From a virus: DNA of 64,000 bases. A program made the position numbers and the translations under genes. Positions 1-42,954 of the stretch are shown here, in pieces. The notes below the pieces were generated by a model. The model did not search any database. It was not told where the DNA came from and saw only the letters and a program-made list of their open reading frames with translations. The stretch is from positions 9,061-73,060 of IMG/VR virus record IMGVR_UViG_3300042892_004373, one strand, 5' to 3'. Each line of letters starts with the position of its first letter. The stretch's first letter is position 1.

Positions 1-151
1 TTCTGCATTTACTTGTGCCAGTGTAAGAGTTTCCCATCTTACTTTTGGTGTTTTATTTGCGGATATACAGATTTCATTTTTTTCTTCCATATGTATTCTT
101 GATTTCCTTGGGAAAACTAATTCATTTTTATTCATGTAGCAAAGATAATAA

Positions 152-185
152 AAAAATCCCAAAAGAACTAACTTTTGGGATTTTT
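152..185. terminator. Rho-independent terminator downstream of the tRNA-Cys unit
   Basis: Inverted repeat AAAATCCCAAAAG-aactaa-CTTTTGGGATTTT flanked by A/T runs. Confidence 0.7.
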
Positions 186-194
186 CTTTCTAAA

Positions 195-277
195 TGGTGG
201 AGCTCAACCTTCCATTCGCGGGAAGGTCTATCCACCTCGGTTACGTTTCCACGAAGGAAAGAGGCTTGACCGGCACC
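195..277 (-). ncRNA. Unclassified structured small RNA ending in CUCCACCA
   Basis: GC-rich island just 3' of tRNA-Cys; stems GGTGGA/TCCACC, GACCTTCC/GGAAGGTT (7-nt loop CGCGAAT), TTTCC/GGAAA; followed by terminator. Confidence 0.45.
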
Positions 278-286
278 TGAGATATG

Positions 287-356
287 AGGCAGAAAAAGGA
301 ATCGAACCTCTGTGTAGGAACTTGCGGTTCCTCGCCTAACACTCAGCCATTCTGCC
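287..356 (-). tRNA. tRNA-Cys(GCA), C at position 33
   Basis: GGCAGAA/TTCTGCC acceptor, U discriminator, anticodon arm AGGAA-CCGCAAG-TTCCT, T-loop TTCGATT. Confidence 0.85.
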
Positions 357-399
357 ATATTGTTCTACAAAGATAGAACTTTTTTTATATAATAAAAAA

Positions 400-1035
400 T
401 TATTTTGTTGTTAAAATTAATCTGTCGATTCCAAGTGCAAAACCAACCCCACCTTCATAAGAACCACCACCACAAATTTGTTTTTGTGCTCCTAATTCTG
501 GACATGAGATTTCAAATCCTTTACCACCTTTGTAGTAGTCAAGTCCTCTTGTTGCATCTAAGTTTACTTCATAGTTATCAGTTGCTAATTCAATTAGTTT
601 AGTTGCGATTTCTAACATTTCATCAGTCATATCTTGAGTTGGGTTGATTACTTCAACTCCGAATTGCGTGAATTGTCTGTATCTACCAGCTTGTGGTTTT
701 TCACCTCTAAAACATTCTCCAATATAGAATAATTTAACATTCTTAGTCATTTTAAATGTTTCGTTTGCAAGTTGTTGAACAACTGCTGTGTATTCTGGTG
801 CTAAGCAAATGTCTCTGTTACCTCTATCAGTAAAAGTATACATCATGTTGTTATTTTCTTCACCTACTTTACTAGCGAATGTTTCAGTTAGTTGAATAAC
901 TGGGATCATCATTTCTTGATAACCATAAGATTCCATAATCTCGATCATTTGATTTAGTAATCTTCTTTTGTTTCTGGCAGTTTCACCAAAAACTATCCTC
1001 GTACCTTTGTACGTTTTACTTGTCTTTATCTCCAT
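400..1035 (-). CDS. hisS: Minimal histidyl-tRNA synthetase (catalytic core only, ~211 aa)
   Basis: Class II motif 2 FRGEKPQAGRYRQFTQFG, RGLDYY His-binding loop, GGGSY, motif 3 GFALGIDRL; ends right after motif 3. Start moved to ATG 1035 because the longer ORF start lies in the attenuator hairpin. Confidence 0.8.
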   Translation of the reverse strand: MEIKTSKTYKGTRIVFGETARNKRRLLNQMIEIMESYGYQEMMIPVIQLTETFASKVGEENNNMMYTFTDRGNRDICLAPEYTAVVQQLANETFKMTKNVKLFYIGECFRGEKPQAGRYRQFTQFGVEVINPTQDMTDEMLEIATKLIELATDNYEVNLDATRGLDYYKGGKGFEISCPELGAQKQICGGGSYEGGVGFALGIDRLILTTK

Positions 1036-1060
1036 TTTAATAATATATTTTTTGTTTAAT

Positions 1061-1091
1061 AAAAAAGCCCAGATCATTATAATCTGGGCTT
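1061..1091 (-). terminator. Attenuator terminator of the His leader
   Basis: AAGCCCAGAT-tataatg-ATCTGGGCTT followed by U-run; 5' arm also complementary to AATCTGGGT in the leader ORF. Confidence 0.8.
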
Positions 1092-1123
1092 ATGTTTAAA
1101 TTAGCAATTTTTAAGACATATAC

Positions 1124-1180
1124 TTACGACCCAGATTTCTCTGTGTGATGATGTAGTTTATATGTTGTTTTCATTTTCAT
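1124..1180 (-). promoter_or_regulatory. His attenuator leader peptide MKMKTTYKLHHHTEKSGS
   Basis: ATG AAA ATG AAA ACA ACA TAT AAA CTA CAT CAT CAC ACA GAG AAA TCT GGG TCG TAA; three tandem His codons upstream of terminator and hisS; TATATTTG promoter element just upstream. Confidence 0.85.
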
Positions 1181-1227
1181 ACTGCAAATATATTACTTTT
1201 TATTTTATTATACAAATAAATTTTATT

Positions 1228-1611
1228 TTATTGGACATTTATATTTTGTGGTAGTGCTAAGAAACCACCATATAAGTTATACCCTATATAAAAATTAAAG
1301 GATATACCACTGGTATTTGGTGTTAAAGTAAATGTGCCACCTAATGTGCCACTCCCATCAATATATAGCTGAATAAAACTATTATCTATATTTTCAACAA
1401 ATTGATTTGCTCTACTAAATGAAGGTGATGTACCATCTATCCACCAGTAAAGAAATGTACCTTCTGAAACTCCAGATATACCACTTATAGTAAATGTTAT
1501 TGTACTACCTTGTGTTGGATTATAGTTACTTGCCACAAATGTTGGTTGTGAAGGTGGAGGAGGTGTATTTCCATCTCCTGTAAAACTTGTTCCTATTATT
1601 GATTGTATCAT
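1228..1611 (-). CDS. Hypothetical beta-rich protein (possible virion/fibre accessory)
   Basis: ORF downstream of large fibre gene; G/S/T-rich. Confidence 0.5.
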   Translation of the reverse strand: MIQSIIGTSFTGDGNTPPPPSQPTFVASNYNPTQGSTITFTISGISGVSEGTFLYWWIDGTSPSFSRANQFVENIDNSFIQLYIDGSGTLGGTFTLTPNTSGISFNFYIGYNLYGGFLALPQNINVQ

Positions 1612-1711
1612 ATTTTATTTTTTATTTTTTATTTGCTATTATATATTATTTTTAATAAAGAAGCAATTGTTATTAGACAATTGCTTCTTAATTTTATTAG
1701 TTTTTCTATTT

Positions 1712-4700
1712 TTAGTCATTATTTCCTAAACCTGCACCACTTACCATCCATTTATCTGGTCCAATTTTCAATATTGTTGCCATTGAGTTATTTGGAATAT
1801 AAAAGTCGTTACTTGTAGTATCAAATCCTGCACCCCATAACTCAGTAGTATCACTATCATCAGTTCTAATATATGTCCAGCTATCACCGCTAACTACAGT
1901 AATCGCGGATCCTATAGGAAAAGGAACATTTCTATTTATAGGAATAATAACACTATAATTACTTTCAGTATCTTTATAGATATGTTTTCCAATATCACTT
2001 AGTTGTAAGTAATAATCATCATAAAATGGATGATAAACTTGAGGTATTACACCTGCACTAGAAGTTTGTTTTGTCCCATCTGAAAATACTATACCACTAT
2101 CTACATCATTTATTCTATCTATATTATTATCTTTATTATAATCACTATTACCGAAATAGAAATCTCTTGAATGTGTTATTGAATGTGTTCCAACTAATGG
2201 TGTGAATGTATCAAAATAACTTTGTGTTATTGATATTGATCTTATTGAGTAATTACCTTCTAAATAGTTTGATACTCCTCCATAATTTACCAGTGAACCA
2301 TCTGTAGGTAAATTTGCCACAAATGCGTTGTGATACTCATTTGACATTACATCTGTATATCCTACTAGTGCTAACTTACTACCATCAAAGCTTATAGCTA
2401 ATCCATTACTTTCCTCGATTAGGCTATAATCTTCTTTACCACCTATAATATTACTCCAAATTAAGACACCGTCTGTGTTAAGTTTGAATAATCTTAATGC
2501 ATCATCCTCAAAACCAAAACTACTTTCATAATCTGAAGTTAATACATATATATTATCATTAGAATCAGTTACTACACTACTTGTGTTCTCATCATCAGTT
2601 CTTTTTTGCCATAATAATTCACCATCAGTTGTTATCTTAGAGATTACTGTCTCATTATCATCATCACTATGGTGGGTTGTTACAATGCTATTAGTACCTA
2701 ATATAGCAACAGACTTTCCTGAACAGTTGTCATCTACTTCATTAAGTGCTTTAGTCCATAAGTGATCACCATCAGAATTAAATTTACTAAGAATTGCAAT
2801 TTGTTCTCCACTTAATGATGATGTTAAACCACCACCATATGCGTGACCAATTGCATATATATTGTTATCTGCATCAGTAGTAACAGAACTAAACTTATCA
2901 CTATCATCATCTGTATTACCACCTAATGTTCTTTCCCAATTTTCGGTATATATATAAGCTTCTGCTCCAATTGATTTATAGATTGACCAAGTTCCTGACG
3001 CACTAAAGTCAACTGATGTACTTATAGTTAAGTATAAACTTGAGGTACTACCTGTTCCTGATATACTTGGAATTTGGAAAAGTCCTGCATCATTTGAATT
3101 ATTGACTAATATACAATCATTTGAACTTGTTCCTCCTAGTTTATTACCAGGTATGGTAATAATATCATTCAGTACATAACCAGATTGTGATCCAATAATA
3201 TTTAAAACAGAATAAACTCCTGTAGTTGGATCATTAAATACATCAAATGATGCACCTGATCCCTCTGTTGTTGAACCAGTTACTCCTATAAAACTTTGAG
3301 TTCCTGATGGTGATAGTCCAGTTGGTCCATTACCTGTAATACTTGCTGCTAATATTCCACCATTTGATGCTGTTGCTGTTTGTATAATAGTTGCATCATT
3401 ATCTGGGGTAATACCACCTAAGTTTGTACCTGGTACAATTATTGGTTTAAGTATATCTAGACTATATCCAGTACCTGGTGTATCTACACCAAGAATTGTA
3501 TAAATACCGGTAGTATTATCTAATTGTATTGTAAATGATGCACCCACTCCACCTGGTGTTAGTGAACCTGTTACTCCAAAAAAGGTATTTACGTAAGTTA
3601 AATCTTCATCTCCTGTGATACCTGTACCACCAATAGACCAAGCACCATTATTATTTGGGTTCTCATTATTAATACTACTTGAAGATATAACTAAAGTACT
3701 AAATGTGCTACCAGAAAGAACTGATGAAGTTCCAATTACCCATTCAAAATATTCTGTCTCTTTTTGACCAACAATGATCAATTCATTATTACTATTAAAA
3801 GTCATATCATGTAGATAAATATCTCCTTGATTTTCAGATATATTTATATCTTTTAATCTAATTACTTTTTTAATTTGAGCACTTTCTGTATCAATTCTTA
3901 CGATAAGTCCTTCTGCAAAGTTATCCGGATATGTTTCACATAAAACTACTAAATCACCATTTATAGGATCAATTTTTATTGATTTTGCTCTCCCATCTTC
4001 ATTGTTATCATCATTAAAAATTGAAATCGACCATATTACATCTCCAGTTTTGTTAAACTTTACTACAATTGGTCTGTTATCATCATGATCTTCACCAACA
4101 CAATAAGTATTGTTATGAATATCCATTACAACAGATCTAAATTCAATGTCATCATTGTAGTTATATAATGGTCCAAATACTGACATCCATCCTAAGGTAT
4201 CTGTTTCTGGTAGAATTAAATCTTTATTAGATAATTCTAATTTTGTATCTCCAAGTGATAATGTATTACCATCTGCAATTAAAACATTTACTTGTTTTGT
4301 ACCATCACCATCAGCTCCGGTATCACCACTATACCAAATTTTATCAATATCTGTATTTATTGCAACCATTGCAAAAATACTTTCATTATATAAAGTAATA
4401 TAACTACTAGATGTTCCAAATGAATTATCTTCAATTATTTCACCTGCACCATAGTTTATACCGTATGCAGTAAAGAATCTAGTACTTATATCTGTATTAT
4501 TGTTTCCACCAACACTATATGTTCCTACACCACCTTCTAATGGGCCGGTAAGTACATATAGGTCATATTGGGTATCCTGGTTATATTTTATAACTTGTCC
4601 TACTGATAGTGTTCCTGATATGATCTCTGTTACAGTAAGAATATTACTATTATAATTATTATCAATGTATTCAATTGATCCTATAAATTCGGTGATACTT

Positions 4701-5953
4701 TTATCTGTTGTTATGTAATTTGAACCATCATATTGATCAGATCCGCCATCTCCTATTGATCGTATTGGCCAAGGATTTGAATTATTTATATATGGACTTG
4801 TATAATCTGGTATACCATTTACATTAGTATTCTCTATAACTCCATCTCTTATAGATGTTACTAAAATTGAGGCATCATTATTACCACCACTAATAGTATA
4901 ACCTTCACCTAAATCAACAGTATAGCTATCACCACCATCAATTAGTGTTGCACCAGTAACTGAACCAGTTGGGCTTGTTGTTATATAAAAAAATGCCCAA
5001 TCTCCTGGACCTTGTACATTATAATATCCATCAGTATATCCAGTACCTGAATGGAAAATTTCAAATGTATCAATATGGCCATTATCAACACTTAATACCT
5101 CTATCTCAGCATCATTAGCAGGACTAAACCCACCTAAAGCAGTACCTGAAATGTTAATTAGATCACCACTTTGAAAACCATATGTGAAGTTAGTATTTGT
5201 AAAATCGGGAGAAGGTCCACCTGGTCCTCCTTCTCCTGGTCCAAAATCATATTCTTTATAATCACCTTCACGTTTACGCATACTGAATGTTCCACTTCCG
5301 GTTCCGGTAGTAGTATATGAATCTACAGCATATGTTATTTGAGTATCTAAAAATGAGAAATTATTATATAATGATCCTGTTGGTAAAGAAGATGTTAGCG
5401 TTTCTATGTTATCATAAAATAAATCTCTTATTATTGTAAGATCTGAGTTAAGAGTACCTTCAGAATATAATATAATATCAACAAACTTTTCTACAAAGGT
5501 TCTAATATCTTTAAGTTTTAAAGGCCTTTTAGAATCGGCACCATAAACATTAAGTACAACTACAGTATCACTACCACTAAGTCCAGTTACATAGAAATCA
5601 TCATTCTCTGTATCATTAGTTCTATTTTGATAGGATGTGTTTGAATTTTTACTTATAATGATTTGTGTTATTGTAGGATCTGCACCGAATAATCTATTTA
5701 TTCCAGCATAAAATCCTCTATATCCAGATGCTGCCACACCTGAAGTTCCAGATGTTCCGTTTATACCGGATGTACCAGAAGAACCGGATGTACCAGAAGA
5801 ACCGGACGTACCAGATGTACCAGAAGTTTCAGATCCGGTTCCACCATTGTTAGTAAGTGCTAATTCTTCTAAGTATAAGAAGTTATTATCCATTTCTGAA
5901 ATGGTTAATCTACTATTTTTTTCACTTCTTAAAGTTAATGAGTAAGTTGACAT
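1712..5953 (-). CDS. Large tail-fibre/receptor-binding-like protein with GTS repeats and beta-propeller-like segments
   Basis: 1413 aa; N-terminus MSTYSLTLRS..EMDNNFLYL shared with 41310-42836; GTSG repeats; repeated xxKxxxxGxxxW units; fibre-like C-terminal PFPIGSAITVV..KWMVSG. Confidence 0.65.
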   Translation of the reverse strand: MSTYSLTLRSEKNSRLTISEMDNNFLYLEELALTNNGGTGSETSGTSGTSGSSGTSGSSGTSGINGTSGTSGVAASGYRGFYAGINRLFGADPTITQIIISKNSNTSYQNRTNDTENDDFYVTGLSGSDTVVVLNVYGADSKRPLKLKDIRTFVEKFVDIILYSEGTLNSDLTIIRDLFYDNIETLTSSLPTGSLYNNFSFLDTQITYAVDSYTTTGTGSGTFSMRKREGDYKEYDFGPGEGGPGGPSPDFTNTNFTYGFQSGDLINISGTALGGFSPANDAEIEVLSVDNGHIDTFEIFHSGTGYTDGYYNVQGPGDWAFFYITTSPTGSVTGATLIDGGDSYTVDLGEGYTISGGNNDASILVTSIRDGVIENTNVNGIPDYTSPYINNSNPWPIRSIGDGGSDQYDGSNYITTDKSITEFIGSIEYIDNNYNSNILTVTEIISGTLSVGQVIKYNQDTQYDLYVLTGPLEGGVGTYSVGGNNNTDISTRFFTAYGINYGAGEIIEDNSFGTSSSYITLYNESIFAMVAINTDIDKIWYSGDTGADGDGTKQVNVLIADGNTLSLGDTKLELSNKDLILPETDTLGWMSVFGPLYNYNDDIEFRSVVMDIHNNTYCVGEDHDDNRPIVVKFNKTGDVIWSISIFNDDNNEDGRAKSIKIDPINGDLVVLCETYPDNFAEGLIVRIDTESAQIKKVIRLKDINISENQGDIYLHDMTFNSNNELIIVGQKETEYFEWVIGTSSVLSGSTFSTLVISSSSINNENPNNNGAWSIGGTGITGDEDLTYVNTFFGVTGSLTPGGVGASFTIQLDNTTGIYTILGVDTPGTGYSLDILKPIIVPGTNLGGITPDNDATIIQTATASNGGILAASITGNGPTGLSPSGTQSFIGVTGSTTEGSGASFDVFNDPTTGVYSVLNIIGSQSGYVLNDIITIPGNKLGGTSSNDCILVNNSNDAGLFQIPSISGTGSTSSLYLTISTSVDFSASGTWSIYKSIGAEAYIYTENWERTLGGNTDDDSDKFSSVTTDADNNIYAIGHAYGGGLTSSLSGEQIAILSKFNSDGDHLWTKALNEVDDNCSGKSVAILGTNSIVTTHHSDDDNETVISKITTDGELLWQKRTDDENTSSVVTDSNDNIYVLTSDYESSFGFEDDALRLFKLNTDGVLIWSNIIGGKEDYSLIEESNGLAISFDGSKLALVGYTDVMSNEYHNAFVANLPTDGSLVNYGGVSNYLEGNYSIRSISITQSYFDTFTPLVGTHSITHSRDFYFGNSDYNKDNNIDRINDVDSGIVFSDGTKQTSSAGVIPQVYHPFYDDYYLQLSDIGKHIYKDTESNYSVIIPINRNVPFPIGSAITVVSGDSWTYIRTDDSDTTELWGAGFDTTSNDFYIPNNSMATILKIGPDKWMVSGAGLGNND

Positions 5954-6059
5954 ATTTTTTTAAATGATTTTTTATATGGTATATATTATTTAAAAAATAT
6001 CAAATTTTACCGAATCTTGATTTAAAATATAAAAAAAGAGAGAGCAAATGCTCTCTCTT

Positions 6060-8894: not shown

Positions 8895-9896
8895 TTAGTT
8901 TATTGCCAATCTTTTTGTTGATGTTTTACCATCTTCTGTAATTTTTACAATATACATACCTGTTACTAAACTACTTACGTCTAATTGACTTTGTGTATTT
9001 TCTACTAAAACTTTTTTACCAACCATGTCATAAATCTCTATATTTTTTGTAGAATCTAGATCAGTTGTAATATTTAAAATGTTTTTTGTTGGGTTTGGAT
9101 AAACTTGTAATCCAGAGATTTGATTTTGATTAGTAGATAAAGATCCTGTTGGAGTAACTGATAAAAATGTATTTGATACACGTATTTCATCAATTTCAAC
9201 ATTACCAGATCCCGCTGTTGCAGTACCACCTTGTCTAATTACAAAACCTGTAATCGTTGTGGGTGCCGCAGTAGTTCCTGTAGAATTTGTTACTGTTGCA
9301 GTTGGTTCGGTATTACCAGGTACTGGATTTACAAATAAACTAGCAGTATTGGTTGATAATTCATACTTTACAACTAATAGGTGTGTACTGCCTACTAATA
9401 GATCACTTGTAAATGTTGGTGTTGCTGTACCACCACTATTATTTAGTATTCCAACTTGAAAACCTGATGTGGCACCCTGTCTTGTATAAATTCTTCCTTG
9501 AAATGCGGTTGTTGTTGCACTTGCAACAGACGTTAATGATAAACCGTAGCTTCCAGTTGTTGAAGTATTTGGATCTAATTGTGTTGCATCTAATACTTTA
9601 ATTAGTACTGAGTAGTAGACAACTCCTGATAATGGTGTTGTTAGTGGAAAGTTCACATCTTCTGTATTACCTGCAATCATAGAGGTTCTATTACCTGTTG
9701 ATGTTGCCAAACCAGGATAAGATAAACTGCTACCATTATCGCTAGATGAGGTAATTATTGATAATTGTCCGGGGGTTCCACTGTGTGTAGTCCAACCATT
9801 TGAGGTTAGTGTACCTGTTCCATTAAAAGGAATGTAGGTTTGACCGAAAGAAATAGTTGTCATAAGTAAGACAACTAAAGTTAAAAGTTTTTTCAT
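8895..9896 (-). CDS. T9SS type A sorting-domain (CTD) secreted protein
   Basis: Signal peptide; C-terminal VYPNPT..LNI..IYDMVGK..GMYIVKI..KRLAIN. Confidence 0.85.
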   Translation of the reverse strand: MKKLLTLVVLLMTTISFGQTYIPFNGTGTLTSNGWTTHSGTPGQLSIITSSSDNGSSLSYPGLATSTGNRTSMIAGNTEDVNFPLTTPLSGVVYYSVLIKVLDATQLDPNTSTTGSYGLSLTSVASATTTAFQGRIYTRQGATSGFQVGILNNSGGTATPTFTSDLLVGSTHLLVVKYELSTNTASLFVNPVPGNTEPTATVTNSTGTTAAPTTITGFVIRQGGTATAGSGNVEIDEIRVSNTFLSVTPTGSLSTNQNQISGLQVYPNPTKNILNITTDLDSTKNIEIYDMVGKKVLVENTQSQLDVSSLVTGMYIVKITEDGKTSTKRLAIN

Positions 9897-23233: not shown

Positions 23234-24490
23234 TTAGTTTAATTTAGCTCGGATTCCAGGTGTATATATCTCCAACAATTGTATCAATTGTTCTTTACAC
23301 TCTGTAGTCAATGCTTTATTTTTGTTTTGATTCAACAAAATCATAAATGAACTTACAACTTTGTTGAACTTAAAAGCATCAGTAAAATCAAATATAGTTT
23401 TTTTGAATGATTCTATATCAATAGTTTCTTCTCCAGTTTTATACAACCAAGTTTTCATTCTACCAATAAATCTTCTAATTCCAATTATATTTTCATCTGA
23501 CCAAGAACCCCCATCAAAGTAGTGACCAATAAACATCAAATAAAATCTGATTTCATCTGAATCATATCCATCCAAACTAACTACATTTCCTTTAGATTTA
23601 GACATTTTTTCTCCCTCATTCAAAATCATTCCTTGATGTACCAACTTAGTTATTGGTTCTTCAAAGTCGATAAATCCAATATCATACAAAAACATTGTAA
23701 TAAATCTGATATAAATCAAGTGCATACAAGCATGCTCTGATCCACCAACATACAAATCAACTGGCTTAGGTTTAATACCTTTCATAATACAATAGATGAT
23801 GGTGTAGATAGAACTATCTACAAATGTATCCATTGTATCAGTTTCTCCATCAATAGGAATAGGACAACCCCAACTTCTTTGTCTTGAAACACACCAGTCA
23901 TGTTGATTTTCCAACCAATTTCTTTGCGACTTTATTGTAGATTCTGGAAAGTCAATCTTATCCAAACCTGCAATCAATCTTTCTTTATAATCTGTGATTT
24001 TGAAGTACCATTGGTTCAATGTTTTCTTTTCTACTTCTGTAGAACATCTTTCACATTTACCATCTTTTACTTGTTCTCTTGCCAATACGGTTTCACAACT
24101 ATTACAGAAGTCAACTTCACCATCTTTCTTATAAGCCAAACCTTTGTCATACAATTGTTTAAACAACCATTGTGTGTACTCAATATAGTCGGGATTTGAA
24201 GTAACCAAAATTTCTTCGTATTGGGTATTCATATTTTCCATTTGTTTCTGGAAATTTTGTATATTTTCGTAGGTAACTTCTCTTGGATCTCTACCTACTT
24301 TTTTTGCATAATTCTCTGCTGGCAAGCCGAATGCGTCATATCCAAAAGGTTGAAATACGGTATCACCTTTATATCTCAAGTATCTGCAGTAACTATCCAT
24401 AATGGCATAGTTATACCAGTGACCACAATGCAATCCTGATCCACTTGGATAAGGAAACATTACAGTTACATATTTATAATTATCAGTCAT
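23234..24490 (-). CDS. leuS: Minimal leucyl-tRNA synthetase (no CP1 editing domain, 418 aa)
   Basis: MFPYPSG, HCGH (HIGH), GYDAFGLPAEN, DWCVSRQRSWG, DTMDTF, GGSEHA, KMSKS. Confidence 0.9.
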   Translation of the reverse strand: MTDNYKYVTVMFPYPSGSGLHCGHWYNYAIMDSYCRYLRYKGDTVFQPFGYDAFGLPAENYAKKVGRDPREVTYENIQNFQKQMENMNTQYEEILVTSNPDYIEYTQWLFKQLYDKGLAYKKDGEVDFCNSCETVLAREQVKDGKCERCSTEVEKKTLNQWYFKITDYKERLIAGLDKIDFPESTIKSQRNWLENQHDWCVSRQRSWGCPIPIDGETDTMDTFVDSSIYTIIYCIMKGIKPKPVDLYVGGSEHACMHLIYIRFITMFLYDIGFIDFEEPITKLVHQGMILNEGEKMSKSKGNVVSLDGYDSDEIRFYLMFIGHYFDGGSWSDENIIGIRRFIGRMKTWLYKTGEETIDIESFKKTIFDFTDAFKFNKVVSSFMILLNQNKNKALTTECKEQLIQLLEIYTPGIRAKLN

Positions 24491-42836: not shown

Positions 42837-42954
42837 ATTTTTTATATAGTTTTTAGTATTTAATACTATTTATATATTATTTTAAAAAATACATTTTCTA
42901 TAAATATTAAATTTTTTTTCAAAAAAATATAAAAAAATATACTATCTTTGTGAA

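Follow-up and report, generated by a model that had tools for sequence, protein, structure and literature searches.

Upstream of a phage gene for a minimal histidyl-tRNA synthetase (mini-hisS) we identified an element that is probably a ribosome-mediated leader-peptide transcription attenuator, predicted to report the supply of His-tRNA(His) and to gate expression of the synthetase. The DNA analysed, referred to here as the window, is a stretch of 64,000 nt (positions 9,061 to 73,060 of IMG/VR record IMGVR_UViG_3300042892_004373). On its minus strand, a Bacteroidota-type promoter is followed by an 18-codon leader ORF, a 9-bp antiterminator segment, an intrinsic terminator and mini-hisS (Table 1). 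An initial annotation had read this arrangement as classic His attenuation. All of its elements were recovered on the minus strand where it had placed them, and the leader peptide is exactly as it had quoted it; the reading itself appears well supported by conservation, His-specific in-frame enrichment, covariation, geometry, the absence of His from the enzyme, and cognate sister attenuators. Taken by itself, the window locus is weak evidence for an attenuator, and it is the comparative evidence that is strong. Three consecutive His codons occur in 4 of the 505 short ORFs (10-30 codons) of the window, and at least three His in 30 of them, so that the significance of the element lies in the combination of features and their conservation, not in the HHH run alone.

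Table 1. Features of the mini-hisS locus (window coordinates).
Feature	Position	Strand	Remarks and basis
-33-like TTTG	1213..1216	-	20 nt upstream of the -7 box; weak element; read from the sequence
Bacteroidota-type -7 promoter box TATATTTG	1185..1192	-	4 nt before the leader ATG
Leader ORF, 18 codons plus stop (1126-1124)	1124..1180	-	ATG at 1180; His-rich homologous ORFs at the same place
Three consecutive His codons CAT CAT CAC (codons 10-12), proposed sensing codons	1145..1153	-	sequence
Segment 1, predicted anti-antiterminator	1140..1165	-	overlaps the first His codon; MFE folds
Segment 2, antiterminator 5' strand, AAUCUGGGU	1129..1137	-	copy of the terminator 3' arm; pairing energy, covariation
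Segment 3, terminator 5' arm and first loop bases	1080..1091	-	partner is segment 2 or segment 4; folds, covariation
Segment 4, terminator 3' arm and T-run	1061..1074	-	folds, covariation
mini-hisS, 211-aa HisRS catalytic core	400..1035	-	ATG at 1035; Pfam, TIGRFAM, PDB profile and fold matches
tRNA-Cys(GCA)	286..356	-	directly downstream of mini-hisS; Rfam tRNA match; same arrangement in L001
Terminator-like hairpin, would end the leader-hisS-tRNA-Cys unit	150..187	-	hairpin prediction

Architecture of the leader

Segment 2, for which the initial annotation had claimed nine base pairs with the terminator 5' arm, indeed forms 9 pairs (one of them G-U) with this arm and the first loop base at -14.3 kcal/mol, an energy matched by 1 of 1000 dinucleotide shuffles of the leader. 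Among the 57 terminator-like hairpins of the 73-kb contig this is the strongest antiterminator match, the next one reaching -11.8. The terminator (1091-1065) has 12 pairs, 5 of them G-C, a loop of 3 and a predicted energy of -16.6 kcal/mol, with the T-run extending to 1061. As a whole, the 171-nt leader folds better than 200 of 200 shuffles (z = -4.06).

Segment 2 starts 15 nt past the first His codon and ends 2 nt ahead of the leader stop. The leading edge of a ribosome lies about 13 nt downstream of its A-site codon. Judged by this textbook footprint, the geometry fits an attenuator: a ribosome at the stop codon would cover segment 2, and one at a His codon would leave it free. Energy prediction pairs segment 1 with segment 2 in the MFE folds of the window locus and of 9 of 13 representative leaders; in the homologues of group E the predicted partner of segment 2 is a downstream CCCAG rather than segment 1. 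The tRNA-Cys(GCA) gene probably belongs to the same transcription unit as mini-hisS. Parts of the stretch are present in seven public RNA runs; the pieces in the four runs examined, Logan contigs that give no ends, strands or levels, include 1156-1434 and 1110-1216, and none extends across the terminator.

Promoter and transcription start

The promoter element of the initial annotation, a sigma-70-like TGTATAAT at 1214-1207 (minus strand), is real as a sequence, and the more relevant motif is the -7 box closer to the leader ORF. This box occurs 22 times in the window versus 10.4 +/- 3.7 copies expected (0 of 100 shuffles reach 22), and it is found at a spacing of 4-5 nt ahead of ORFs of at least 80 aa elsewhere on the contig. 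A block from about -30 to the leader ATG is kept in three homologous loci (L001, L021 and L023), with differing flanking sequence. For Flavobacterium, the available part of one study describes a -33/-7 consensus TTTG/TANNTTTG with a poorly conserved -33 element and a 4-5 nt spacing rule (PMC6847099). Since the -7 box lies 4 nt before the ATG, the transcript is predicted to begin at the A of the start codon and is thus probably leaderless, a prediction that depends on the spacing rule from this single study. In the interval between terminator and hisS the sequence contains no TAnnTTTG box. The contig covers part of the genome of a large phage whose promoter grammar is of the Bacteroidota type; a lytic lifestyle is not established.

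Conservation of the element

We compared 126 distinct upstream regions of mini-hisS homologues, selecting candidates by RNA criteria alone. Within 520 nt, these regions hold 34 terminators, and for 23 of the 34 an upstream segment pairs with the terminator 5' arm at -10 kcal/mol or better. A short ATG-initiated ORF overlaps this antiterminator segment in 21 of the 23; of the remaining two, one is the second of a tandem pair of terminators and the other lies on a truncated contig. All 21 ORFs contain His, with at least two His in 17 and at least three in 13. The search for His leaders upstream of homologues, which the initial annotation had proposed as a check, was thus fruitful, the same design being present at at least 23 of the 126 regions. 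The 11 terminators that lack an antiterminator segment are preceded by ORFs with none or one His or by no ORF, with the exception of L038, where the stop codon of a 4-His leader lies 5 nt before the segment.

The leader peptides differ in sequence between loci and keep their His-richness. In 11 representative leaders, 32 of 200 residues are His compared with 1.49% in the long ORFs of the contig (10.7 times, p = 3.7e-23); Thr follows at 1.6 times, and no residue besides His exceeds 1.8 times. The other two frames of the same leader regions hold 27 His codons in 591. All leaders carry one or more His codons 13 nt or more upstream of segment 2. In groups A, B and E, the distance from a His codon to segment 2 is 15-16 nt, and in most leaders the stop codon overlaps segment 2 or directly adjoins it.

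The RNA design is likewise conserved. For 12 of 13 representatives, the observed antiterminator energy is reached by only 0-15 of 1000 shuffles, and in a cross-locus matrix the terminator with which a leader pairs most strongly comes from the same group in every case. Base pairs were counted in an alignment of 16 sequences (A3); a whole-leader MAFFT alignment (A2) was excluded from these counts, as segment 2 is misaligned in it. In A3, which was cut at the predicted segment 2 and therefore somewhat favours structure, 81.2% of 165 antiterminator cells are paired versus 68.7% after shuffling (0 of 500 reach the observed value), a statistic that overstates independence because the loci are phylogenetically related. 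Both sides change in 8 of the 12 antiterminator pairs, and partners slid along the alignment pair in 18.7-47.1%. For the terminator, 92.4% of 172 cells are paired, with compensatory changes in 8 of 12 pairs.

About 100 of the 126 homologues have no attenuator within 520 nt, and the device is therefore dispensable. In a quick tree search, 18 of 21 attenuator rows fell into one clade of 39 rows. Group E, which includes the complete genomes LR745206.1 and LR756502.1, has a homologous leader with a single His codon, so that His specificity would be weaker or lost there. In L021 a separate terminator precedes the leader promoter; L002 has kept the promoter and a 14-codon ORF with 2 His next to a degraded hairpin without T-run, and we read it as a decayed copy of the attenuator. 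L096, a distant locus with 2 His, was left out as unclear, as was the tandem terminator that comes second in L166; L166 itself (GC-rich, 42% identity, 2 His, many Ser) is only a possible distant member.

The mini-HisRS

The product of mini-hisS matches the Pfam family tRNA-synt_His (7.6e-26) and, in a profile alignment, the PDB HisRS structure 1qe0 (2.9e-32). It scores 165.9 bits for TIGR00442 hisS, which is below the NCBIfam cut-off of 286.75, versus 104.4 bits for hisZ. Profile alignment to 1qe0 and 1htt shows that motif 2 (FR.E.PQ.GRYRQF), RGLDYY and the motif 3 Arg are conserved, and for an AF2 model with a pLDDT of 73.8 the best Foldseek match is E. coli HisRS (1kmm_B, 1.4e-11). With 211 aa compared to about 420 in full-size enzymes, the protein is without the insertion domain and the anticodon-binding domain: the alignment to 1qe0 skips approximately residues 141-228 and stops short of the C-terminal domain. 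The HisS-like score and the preserved fold of the catalytic core suggest that the mini-HisRS, despite the two missing domains, may charge tRNA-His.

The enzyme of the window contains no His residue at all. The same is true for 21 of 21 attenuator-linked mini-HisRS proteins and for 70 of 104 at other loci; the proteins of these other loci have a His content of 0.33% (71 of 21,433 residues) versus 0.98% in 65 full-length bacterial HisRS pieces. At many loci mini-hisS lies within tRNA arrays, and in L004, L020 and L169 it adjoins tRNA-His, a setting that is no more than suggestive of tRNA-His charging. No PHROGs family was found for the mini-HisRS or the upstream 127-aa ORF, and megablast of window positions 1-6000 against phage records gave zero matches. 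In a scan of genome contigs the mini type was seen on only three MAG contigs (Omnitrophota, Saccharibacteria and Flavobacterium bins), none of the three with an attenuator, the other matches being full-length HisRS; these bins are at most a weak hint to the host.

Proposed mechanism and alternatives

According to our proposal, the Bacteroidota-type promoter would set the transcription start, probably on the first base of the leader ATG, and the ribosome would therefore load at the very 5' end of the transcript. With His-tRNA(His) in plentiful supply, the ribosome would reach the stop codon and cover segment 2, upon which segments 3 and 4 would form the terminator and the transcript would end at the T-run, at about 1061. 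When His-tRNA(His) is scarce, the ribosome would stall while its A site is occupied by any of the three His codons, and would mask segment 1. Segment 2 would thereby be left free to pair with segment 3 ahead of the synthesis of segment 4; the terminator would then fail to form, and the polymerase would enter hisS. If no ribosome is present, segment 1 is predicted to hold segment 2, and termination would therefore be the default state. The mini-HisRS would thus probably be made only when charged His tRNA is short, and the tRNA-Cys gene behind it is probably gated along with it. As the enzyme contains no histidine, its own synthesis would be independent of the scarce tRNA.

The same RNA could also serve as a translation-coupled attenuator without amino-acid specificity, in which the leader reports the closeness of the ribosome to the polymerase, and with it the general capacity for translation, as in the pyrBI type, and sensing does not depend on the His codons. 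Such a device would switch on any slowing of leader translation, and the group E leaders have indeed kept the whole RNA design with one His codon. We nevertheless regard this explanation as improbable, since His is the sole strongly enriched residue across leaders otherwise unrelated in sequence, the His-to-segment-2 spacing is conserved, and the sister elements described below carry the cognate residue of the aaRS or tRNA genes that follow them. Even less probable is a riboregulator that binds a protein or a tRNA, be it autoregulation by the mini-HisRS or T-box-like sensing of uncharged tRNA-His, with the short ORF being incidental. The well-structured leader RNA would suit such a regulator, as would the frequent autoregulation or T-box control of aaRS genes in other phyla noted in the available part of a comparative study (PMC2965389). 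However, a search of window positions 1-3000 against Rfam (E up to 10) returned nothing above gathering score besides tRNA-Cys, and no T-box. Moreover, in-frame His codons exceed those of the other frames, and what is conserved about the leader ORF is its start, frame and stop beside segment 2, not its peptide sequence.

One might finally suspect an ordinary terminator of the upstream structural-gene unit next to a chance short ORF, hisS being expressed by leakage or from another start. Chance ORFs with HHH do occur and terminator-like hairpins are numerous on the contig, but the upstream gene and the leader ORF are separated by a conserved promoter box, in L021 a terminator of its own stands ahead of this promoter, the order promoter-ORF-terminator-gene recurs with covariation in divergent loci, and the stretch between terminator and hisS offers no TAnnTTTG box for another start. 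We consider this scenario very improbable indeed, and retain His-specific attenuation as the reading that best accounts for the locus.

Sister elements before other synthetase and tRNA genes

The same design with cognate codons was found in the two complete relatives of about 640 kb, LR745206.1 and LR756502.1. In LR745206.1, 9 of 14 candidates obtained with the RNA-plus-ORF rule precede aaRS genes or tRNA arrays. There, the IleRS gene follows a leader with 7 Ile, a LeuRS-like gene one with an LLL run, a ValRS-like gene one with 5 Val and a PheS-related gene one with 4 Phe; mixed leaders precede tRNA arrays for the same amino acids. A leader of LR756502.1 has seven consecutive Gln codons and is followed by four tRNA-Gln genes and GlnRS. 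On the contig of the window and on a 180-kb near-identical relative no further attenuator was found, the His element alone having passed; the mini-LeuRS gene of the window (23234-24490) has a promoter and no leader.

These elements may well constitute a regulon encoded by large Bacteroidota phages that senses tRNA charging, in which leaders with cognate codons stand before synthetases (His, Ile, Leu, Val, Phe, Gln) and tRNA arrays, each unit being transcribed only when the matching charged tRNA runs short in the course of infection; we lean towards this view with some reserve. Within such a regulon the His module would be the most extreme case, combining a leaderless leader ORF with a minimal, His-purged synthetase. 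The element bears on the purpose and the expression timing of the tRNAs and synthetases encoded by jumbo and huge phages. Cognate-codon attenuators would mean that the phage keeps watch on how well each tRNA is charged and replenishes precisely the component that is limiting, and hence that its aaRS and tRNA genes answer to translational stress in infection rather than being expressed constitutively. Should the regulon exist, it would be without a described precedent among viruses as a case of amino-acid-specific, ribosome-mediated attenuation, and it would directly indicate what tRNAs and synthetases are good for in huge phages. With its roughly 130 nt the element is compact and modular, and it points to the His-free HisRS core as a putative working minimal synthetase.

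Comparison with known attenuation systems

No Rfam family was found at the leader (window positions 1-3000, E up to 10): the best match at the locus is Thr_leader with 23.5 bits versus 55 required, and His_leader (RF00514, gathering score 49 bits) gave no match at 1035-1192. The sole His_leader match (26.5 bits) falls on a different terminator, at plus-strand positions 84-190. We rejected the sub-threshold matches to leader families as terminator matches; only tRNA-Cys passes.

The leader peptide of the hisL attenuator of E. coli and Salmonella contains seven His codons. Our element shares with hisL a short ORF with a His run, mutually exclusive antiterminator and terminator structures, and an intrinsic terminator before the regulated gene, and in both cases a ribosome stalled for want of His-tRNA(His) leads, or in our case would lead, to readthrough. 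Unlike hisL, the window locus has three His codons, does not match RF00514, is phage-borne, uses a Bacteroidota-type promoter with the leader ORF probably at the 5' end of the transcript, and is directed at a synthetase instead of biosynthesis. An aaRS gene under control of a leader peptide rich in the cognate amino acid is known from the E. coli pheST attenuator with its pheM leader, which, in contrast to the window element, is chromosomal, proteobacterial, Phe-sensing and linked to a full-size enzyme. The T-box of Firmicutes also yields more synthetase when the cognate tRNA is uncharged, by way of a terminator/antiterminator choice, but it binds the tRNA directly and without translation, whereas the window locus has a conserved ORF and no T-box match.

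A literature search found no phage example of such an attenuator; in the main text of the paper describing these huge-phage genomes, with as many as 15 synthetases reported in a genome, the string 'attenuat' occurs 0 times (PMC7162821). For bacilli, comparative genomics has predicted His leader peptides before a hisS paralogue and hisZ, as described in the accessible part of Naville and Gautheret 2010 (PMC2965389). These resemble our candidate as His-codon leaders before a hisS-family gene that were likewise predicted by comparison of genomes. They differ in being bacterial, from Firmicutes, unrelated in sequence and directed at a full-length paralogue and at the HisG regulator HisZ, whereas the window target is HisS-like. 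A further parallel is offered by the leader-peptide attenuators inferred upstream of amino-acid operons in Flavobacterium psychrophilum, where aaRS genes have structured 5' UTRs (PMC9723704, available in part). They share with the window element the likely host phylum, the promoter grammar and the kind of device; they are host elements, and the likeness is drawn from their description. By analogy, the attenuation inferred in F. psychrophilum makes such a device plausible in the host of this phage.

Organization of the locus and the putatively regulated gene

The putative attenuator–hisS feature lies on the minus strand of the window (Table). Inspection of that strand confirmed all the elements of the initial annotation, namely a promoter element, a leader with His codons, a segment able to pair with the 5' arm of a terminator, the terminator itself and hisS. 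Just upstream of the hisS unit, a 1413-aa protein (1712-5953, minus strand) shows repeats of Gly-Thr-Ser close to its N-terminus and weakly matches a beta-propeller family (PQQ_2); it is probably a structural or fibre protein. Elsewhere, at 11203-11292 (minus strand) beside a tRNA-Met, ARAGORN called a 90-nt tRNA whose anticodon has four bases (cggt) and to which it gave no amino acid; it could be a frameshift-suppressor-like tRNA, an intron-bearing tRNA or a false call.

Table. Coordinates of the putative attenuator–mini-hisS locus in the window and of sister elements in two complete ~640-kb relatives
Feature	Position	Strand	Remarks
127-aa ORF	stop at 1228	−	upstream neighbour
Weak TTTG	1216-1213	−	
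Bacteroidota-type −7 box, TATATTTG	1192-1185	−	
Leader ORF, 18 codons	ATG 1180; stop 1126-1124	−	ATG four bases past −7 box
His codons	1153-1145	−	leader codons 10-12
Segment 2, AAUCUGGGU	1137-1129	−	within final leader codons
Terminator hairpin, 12 pairs	1091-1065	−	then T-run to 1061
A-rich spacer, 25 bases		−	between T-run and hisS ATG
211-aa HisRS-like gene (mini-hisS)	ATG 1035, end 400	−	
tRNA-Cys	356-286	−	downstream of HisRS-like gene
Second terminator-like hairpin	187-150	−	past tRNA-Cys
LR745206.1 (L264-L295), sister sites	~35770, 614957	−	
LR745206.1 (L264-L295), sister sites	~343726, 365138, 366182, 381983, 387847, 404637	+	
LR745206.1, 20-codon leader, 7 Ile incl. run of four			IleRS (TIGR00392, 674 bits)
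LR745206.1, LLL-run leader			422-aa LeuRS-like gene (390 bits)
LR745206.1, 5-Val leader			443-aa ValRS-like gene (328 bits)
LR745206.1, 4-Phe leader			PheS-related ligase (NF051887, 423 bits)
LR745206.1, single-His leader			67-aa ORF and mini-HisRS
LR745206.1, leader with three ATA and four Gly codons			tRNA-Ile(UAU), tRNA-Gly(UCC), tRNA-Met, second tRNA-Gly(UCC), then GlyRS-like gene
LR756502.1 (L296-L328), sister sites	~377728, 389764, 401292, 422083, 423016	+	
LR756502.1, leader of seven consecutive Gln codons			four tRNA-Gln genes and full GlnRS (TIGR00440, 618 bits)
LR756502.1, Gln/Asp/Pro, Asn/Leu/Thr/Val and Ile/Gly/Ala leaders			arrays of those tRNAs

The 211-aa protein matches Pfam tRNA-synt_His (7.6e-26) and scores 165.9 bits with TIGR00442 hisS versus 104.4 with hisZ, both under the cut-offs because half of the protein is missing. 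HisRS structures rank first in a family profile search (1qe0, 2.9e-32); the alignment to 1qe0 passes over the insertion domain and lacks the anticodon-binding domain. The AF2 model (pLDDT 73.8) best matches E. coli HisRS (1kmm_B, 1.4e-11, TM 0.66). Motif 2, RGLDYY and the motif 3 Arg, which we take to include the catalytic residues, are invariant across the family. Mini-hisS often lies within tRNA arrays, with tRNA-His adjoining in three loci (L004, L020 and L169), and in bacterial genomes the mini form was seen in three MAG contigs only.

The family (the window's protein plus 125 distinct homologues) is nearly His-free: His is absent from all 21 attenuator-linked proteins and from 70 of the 104 others. 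At loci lacking the attenuator it makes up 0.33% (71/21,433 residues), compared with 0.98% for a set of 65 full-length bacterial HisRS pieces and 1.49% among long ORFs of the contig. An enzyme for times of scarce His-tRNA(His) should avoid His codons, as the predicted mini-HisRS does.

Promoter and predicted transcription start

The box TATATTTG occurs 22 times in the window, versus 10.4 ± 3.7 expected. TAnnTTTG is found 4-31 nt ahead of many contig ORFs of at least 80 aa, several of which start, like the leader, 4-5 nt after the box (boxes at 42943, 31362, 26272 and 38385 of the window). Given these spacings, leaderless or near-leaderless mRNAs seem more frequent in this phage than the 5.5% reported for Flavobacterium psychrophilum. 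The −7 element of Flavobacterium johnsoniae occupies −12 to −5, followed by 4-5 nt to the start site (PMC6847099). Applied here, that spacing would put the first transcribed base on the A of the leader's ATG, with the leader ORF probably read from a leaderless RNA. The block common to the window and three related loci (L001, L021, L023) starts ~30 nt before the leader ATG, and in L021 a separate terminator precedes this promoter block; both support an independent transcription unit. Of complete relatives, LR756502.1 and LR745206.1 stand closest (protein identity 74-76%), and the phage is large, as judged from CheckV completeness of 26% for the window's contig and 30% for a 180-kb near-twin.

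Conservation of the device among mini-hisS relatives

Taken by itself, the window locus is only partly beyond chance. HHH is present in 4 of the window's 505 short ORFs and one in 1000 dinucleotide shuffles equals the antiterminator match. The 171-nt leader folds better than 200/200 shuffles, and among 57 terminator-like hairpins of the 73-kb contig none has a stronger upstream copy of its 3' arm than this terminator.

From viral, metagenome and phage collections, 174 loci encoding mini-HisRS relatives were gathered, giving 134 distinct upstream regions, 126 of them with at least 150 nt; candidate attenuators were selected by RNA criteria alone, to exclude choice by eye. Terminators within 520 nt upstream of mini-hisS numbered 34, and 23 of these had an upstream segment whose predicted pairing with the terminator 5' arm had an energy of −10 kcal/mol or better. 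A short ATG-ORF overlapped the pairing segment in 21 of the 23; all 21 ORFs contained His, 17 at least two and 13 three or four. No such ORF was present at the other two, namely a second tandem terminator (L166) and L042, where the contig breaks off within the leader. The 11 terminators lacking a pairing segment had ORFs with 0-1 His or no ORF, except L038, whose four-His leader ends 5 nt short of the segment. The device is thus present in at least 23/126 regions (truncated L034 and L042 included), a lower bound since the 520-nt scan missed that of LR756502.1, where 1.07 kb separate mini-hisS from the single-His leader upstream of it, which stands ahead of an extra 217-aa ORF without family.

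One clade has a 67-aa Lys/Arg-rich ORF without Pfam family between attenuator and mini-hisS (L036:363-566; same position in L019, L028, L031 and L034), so that the switch there would control a two-gene unit. In a close relative (L002:1410-1500, 85% protein identity) promoter and a 14-codon two-His ORF are kept, with a degraded hairpin and no T-run; the attenuator there has apparently decayed.

The leader peptides form about seven mutually unalignable groups. His accounts for 32 of 200 residues in 11 representative leaders, 10.7 times its 1.49% share in long ORFs of the contig (p = 3.7e-23), although the related loci make these leaders non-independent draws; Trp (1.8 times, 4/200) and Thr (1.6 times) follow. 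The other two frames of the leader stretches hold 27 His codons in 591. Close leader pairs differ by in-frame indels, synonymous CAT/CAC swaps and neighbouring-codon changes, with the His codons kept. His specificity differs between members of the family, as group E has a single-His leader.

Covariation and geometry of the proposed switch

Across loci, each leader pairs best with its own group's terminator; L052, for example, reaches −15.2 with its own and at best −8.7 with those of the other groups. The observed antiterminator energy was matched by 0-15 of 1000 shuffles in 12 of the 13 representatives. On a 16-sequence leader alignment, cut at the predicted segment 2 and thereby slightly biased toward the structure, 81.2% of 165 antiterminator cells are paired versus 68.7 ± 1.8 after shuffling (0/500 reach the observed value), and sliding the partner gives 18.7-47.1%. 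Both sides have changed in 8/12 antiterminator pairs. The terminator is paired in 92.4% of 172 cells, with 8/12 compensatory pairs. Segment 3, the terminator 5' arm, hence co-changes with both alternative partners, a requirement of a switch.

A ribosome with a codon waiting in its A site reaches ~13 nt downstream. In the window, counting from the initial base of the first His codon, segment 2 begins 15 nt downstream; its end falls 2 nt short of the stop codon. Given that reach, a ribosome stalled with a His codon in the A site would leave segment 2 just free, while one at the stop codon would cover it. A spacing of 15-16 nt is seen again in groups A, B and E. No leader lacks a His codon 13 nt or more upstream of segment 2, and in most the stop codon overlaps or abuts that segment. 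For the ribosome-free state, energy prediction pairs segment 2 with an upstream stretch overlapping the His codons in 9/13 representatives, and in group E with a small downstream CCCAG.

Sister elements in related phages

Three further records were scanned for terminators accompanied by an overlapping short ORF and an upstream 3'-arm copy with an energy of −11 kcal/mol or better. The His element was the sole candidate among 110 terminators of the 180-kb near-twin. LR756502.1 gave nine candidates (169 terminators) and LR745206.1 gave 14 (180 terminators), nine of the latter ahead of synthetase genes or tRNA arrays (Table). Mixed leaders of LR745206.1 (Ser; Glu/Tyr; Ile/Gly; Asn/Thr/Leu/Val) precede specificity-matched tRNA arrays. 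For each of the nine LR745206.1 elements ahead of synthetase genes or tRNA arrays, 0-13 of 500 shuffles equalled the antiterminator match; in the His, Leu, Phe and Val cases, segment 2 is located at the stop codon. Ahead of synthetase genes, the cognate residue is commonest or tied in five of seven leaders, the exceptions being the clade's two His leaders. Judged from sequence, these sister elements are the strongest argument for a design that would be ribosome-read and amino acid-specific.

The window also encodes a 418-aa LeuRS-like protein of about half size (mini-LeuRS, 23234-24490, minus strand) with a 31-nt 5' UTR and, at 24529-24522, a TATATTTG promoter; at its promoter region there is no leader ORF and no terminator.

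Comparison with known attenuators

We consider it likely that a ribosome-mediated His-tRNA(His) attenuator precedes mini-hisS; His-rich leaders, covariation, geometry and cognate sister elements all favour this reading, as initially proposed. No Rfam family matched the leader element. Our full-text literature search found no description of a phage leader-peptide attenuator or of a truncated phage HisRS, and 'attenuat' is absent from the main text of the huge-phage paper. The classic synthetase case is the pheST attenuator. Two bacterial studies report His leaders predicted ahead of hisS-family genes in bacilli (PMC2965389) and leader-peptide attenuation inferred in F. psychrophilum (PMC9723704). 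What looks new is the use by a virus, the probable leaderless leader, the His-free minimal target and the membership in an apparent wider phage regulon. The proposed mechanism is textbook attenuation. In textbook attenuators the antiterminator wins kinetically, not thermodynamically, and the window's ratio of terminator (−16.6 kcal/mol alone) to antiterminator energy (−14.3 kcal/mol for the segment 2:3 duplex) resembles theirs.
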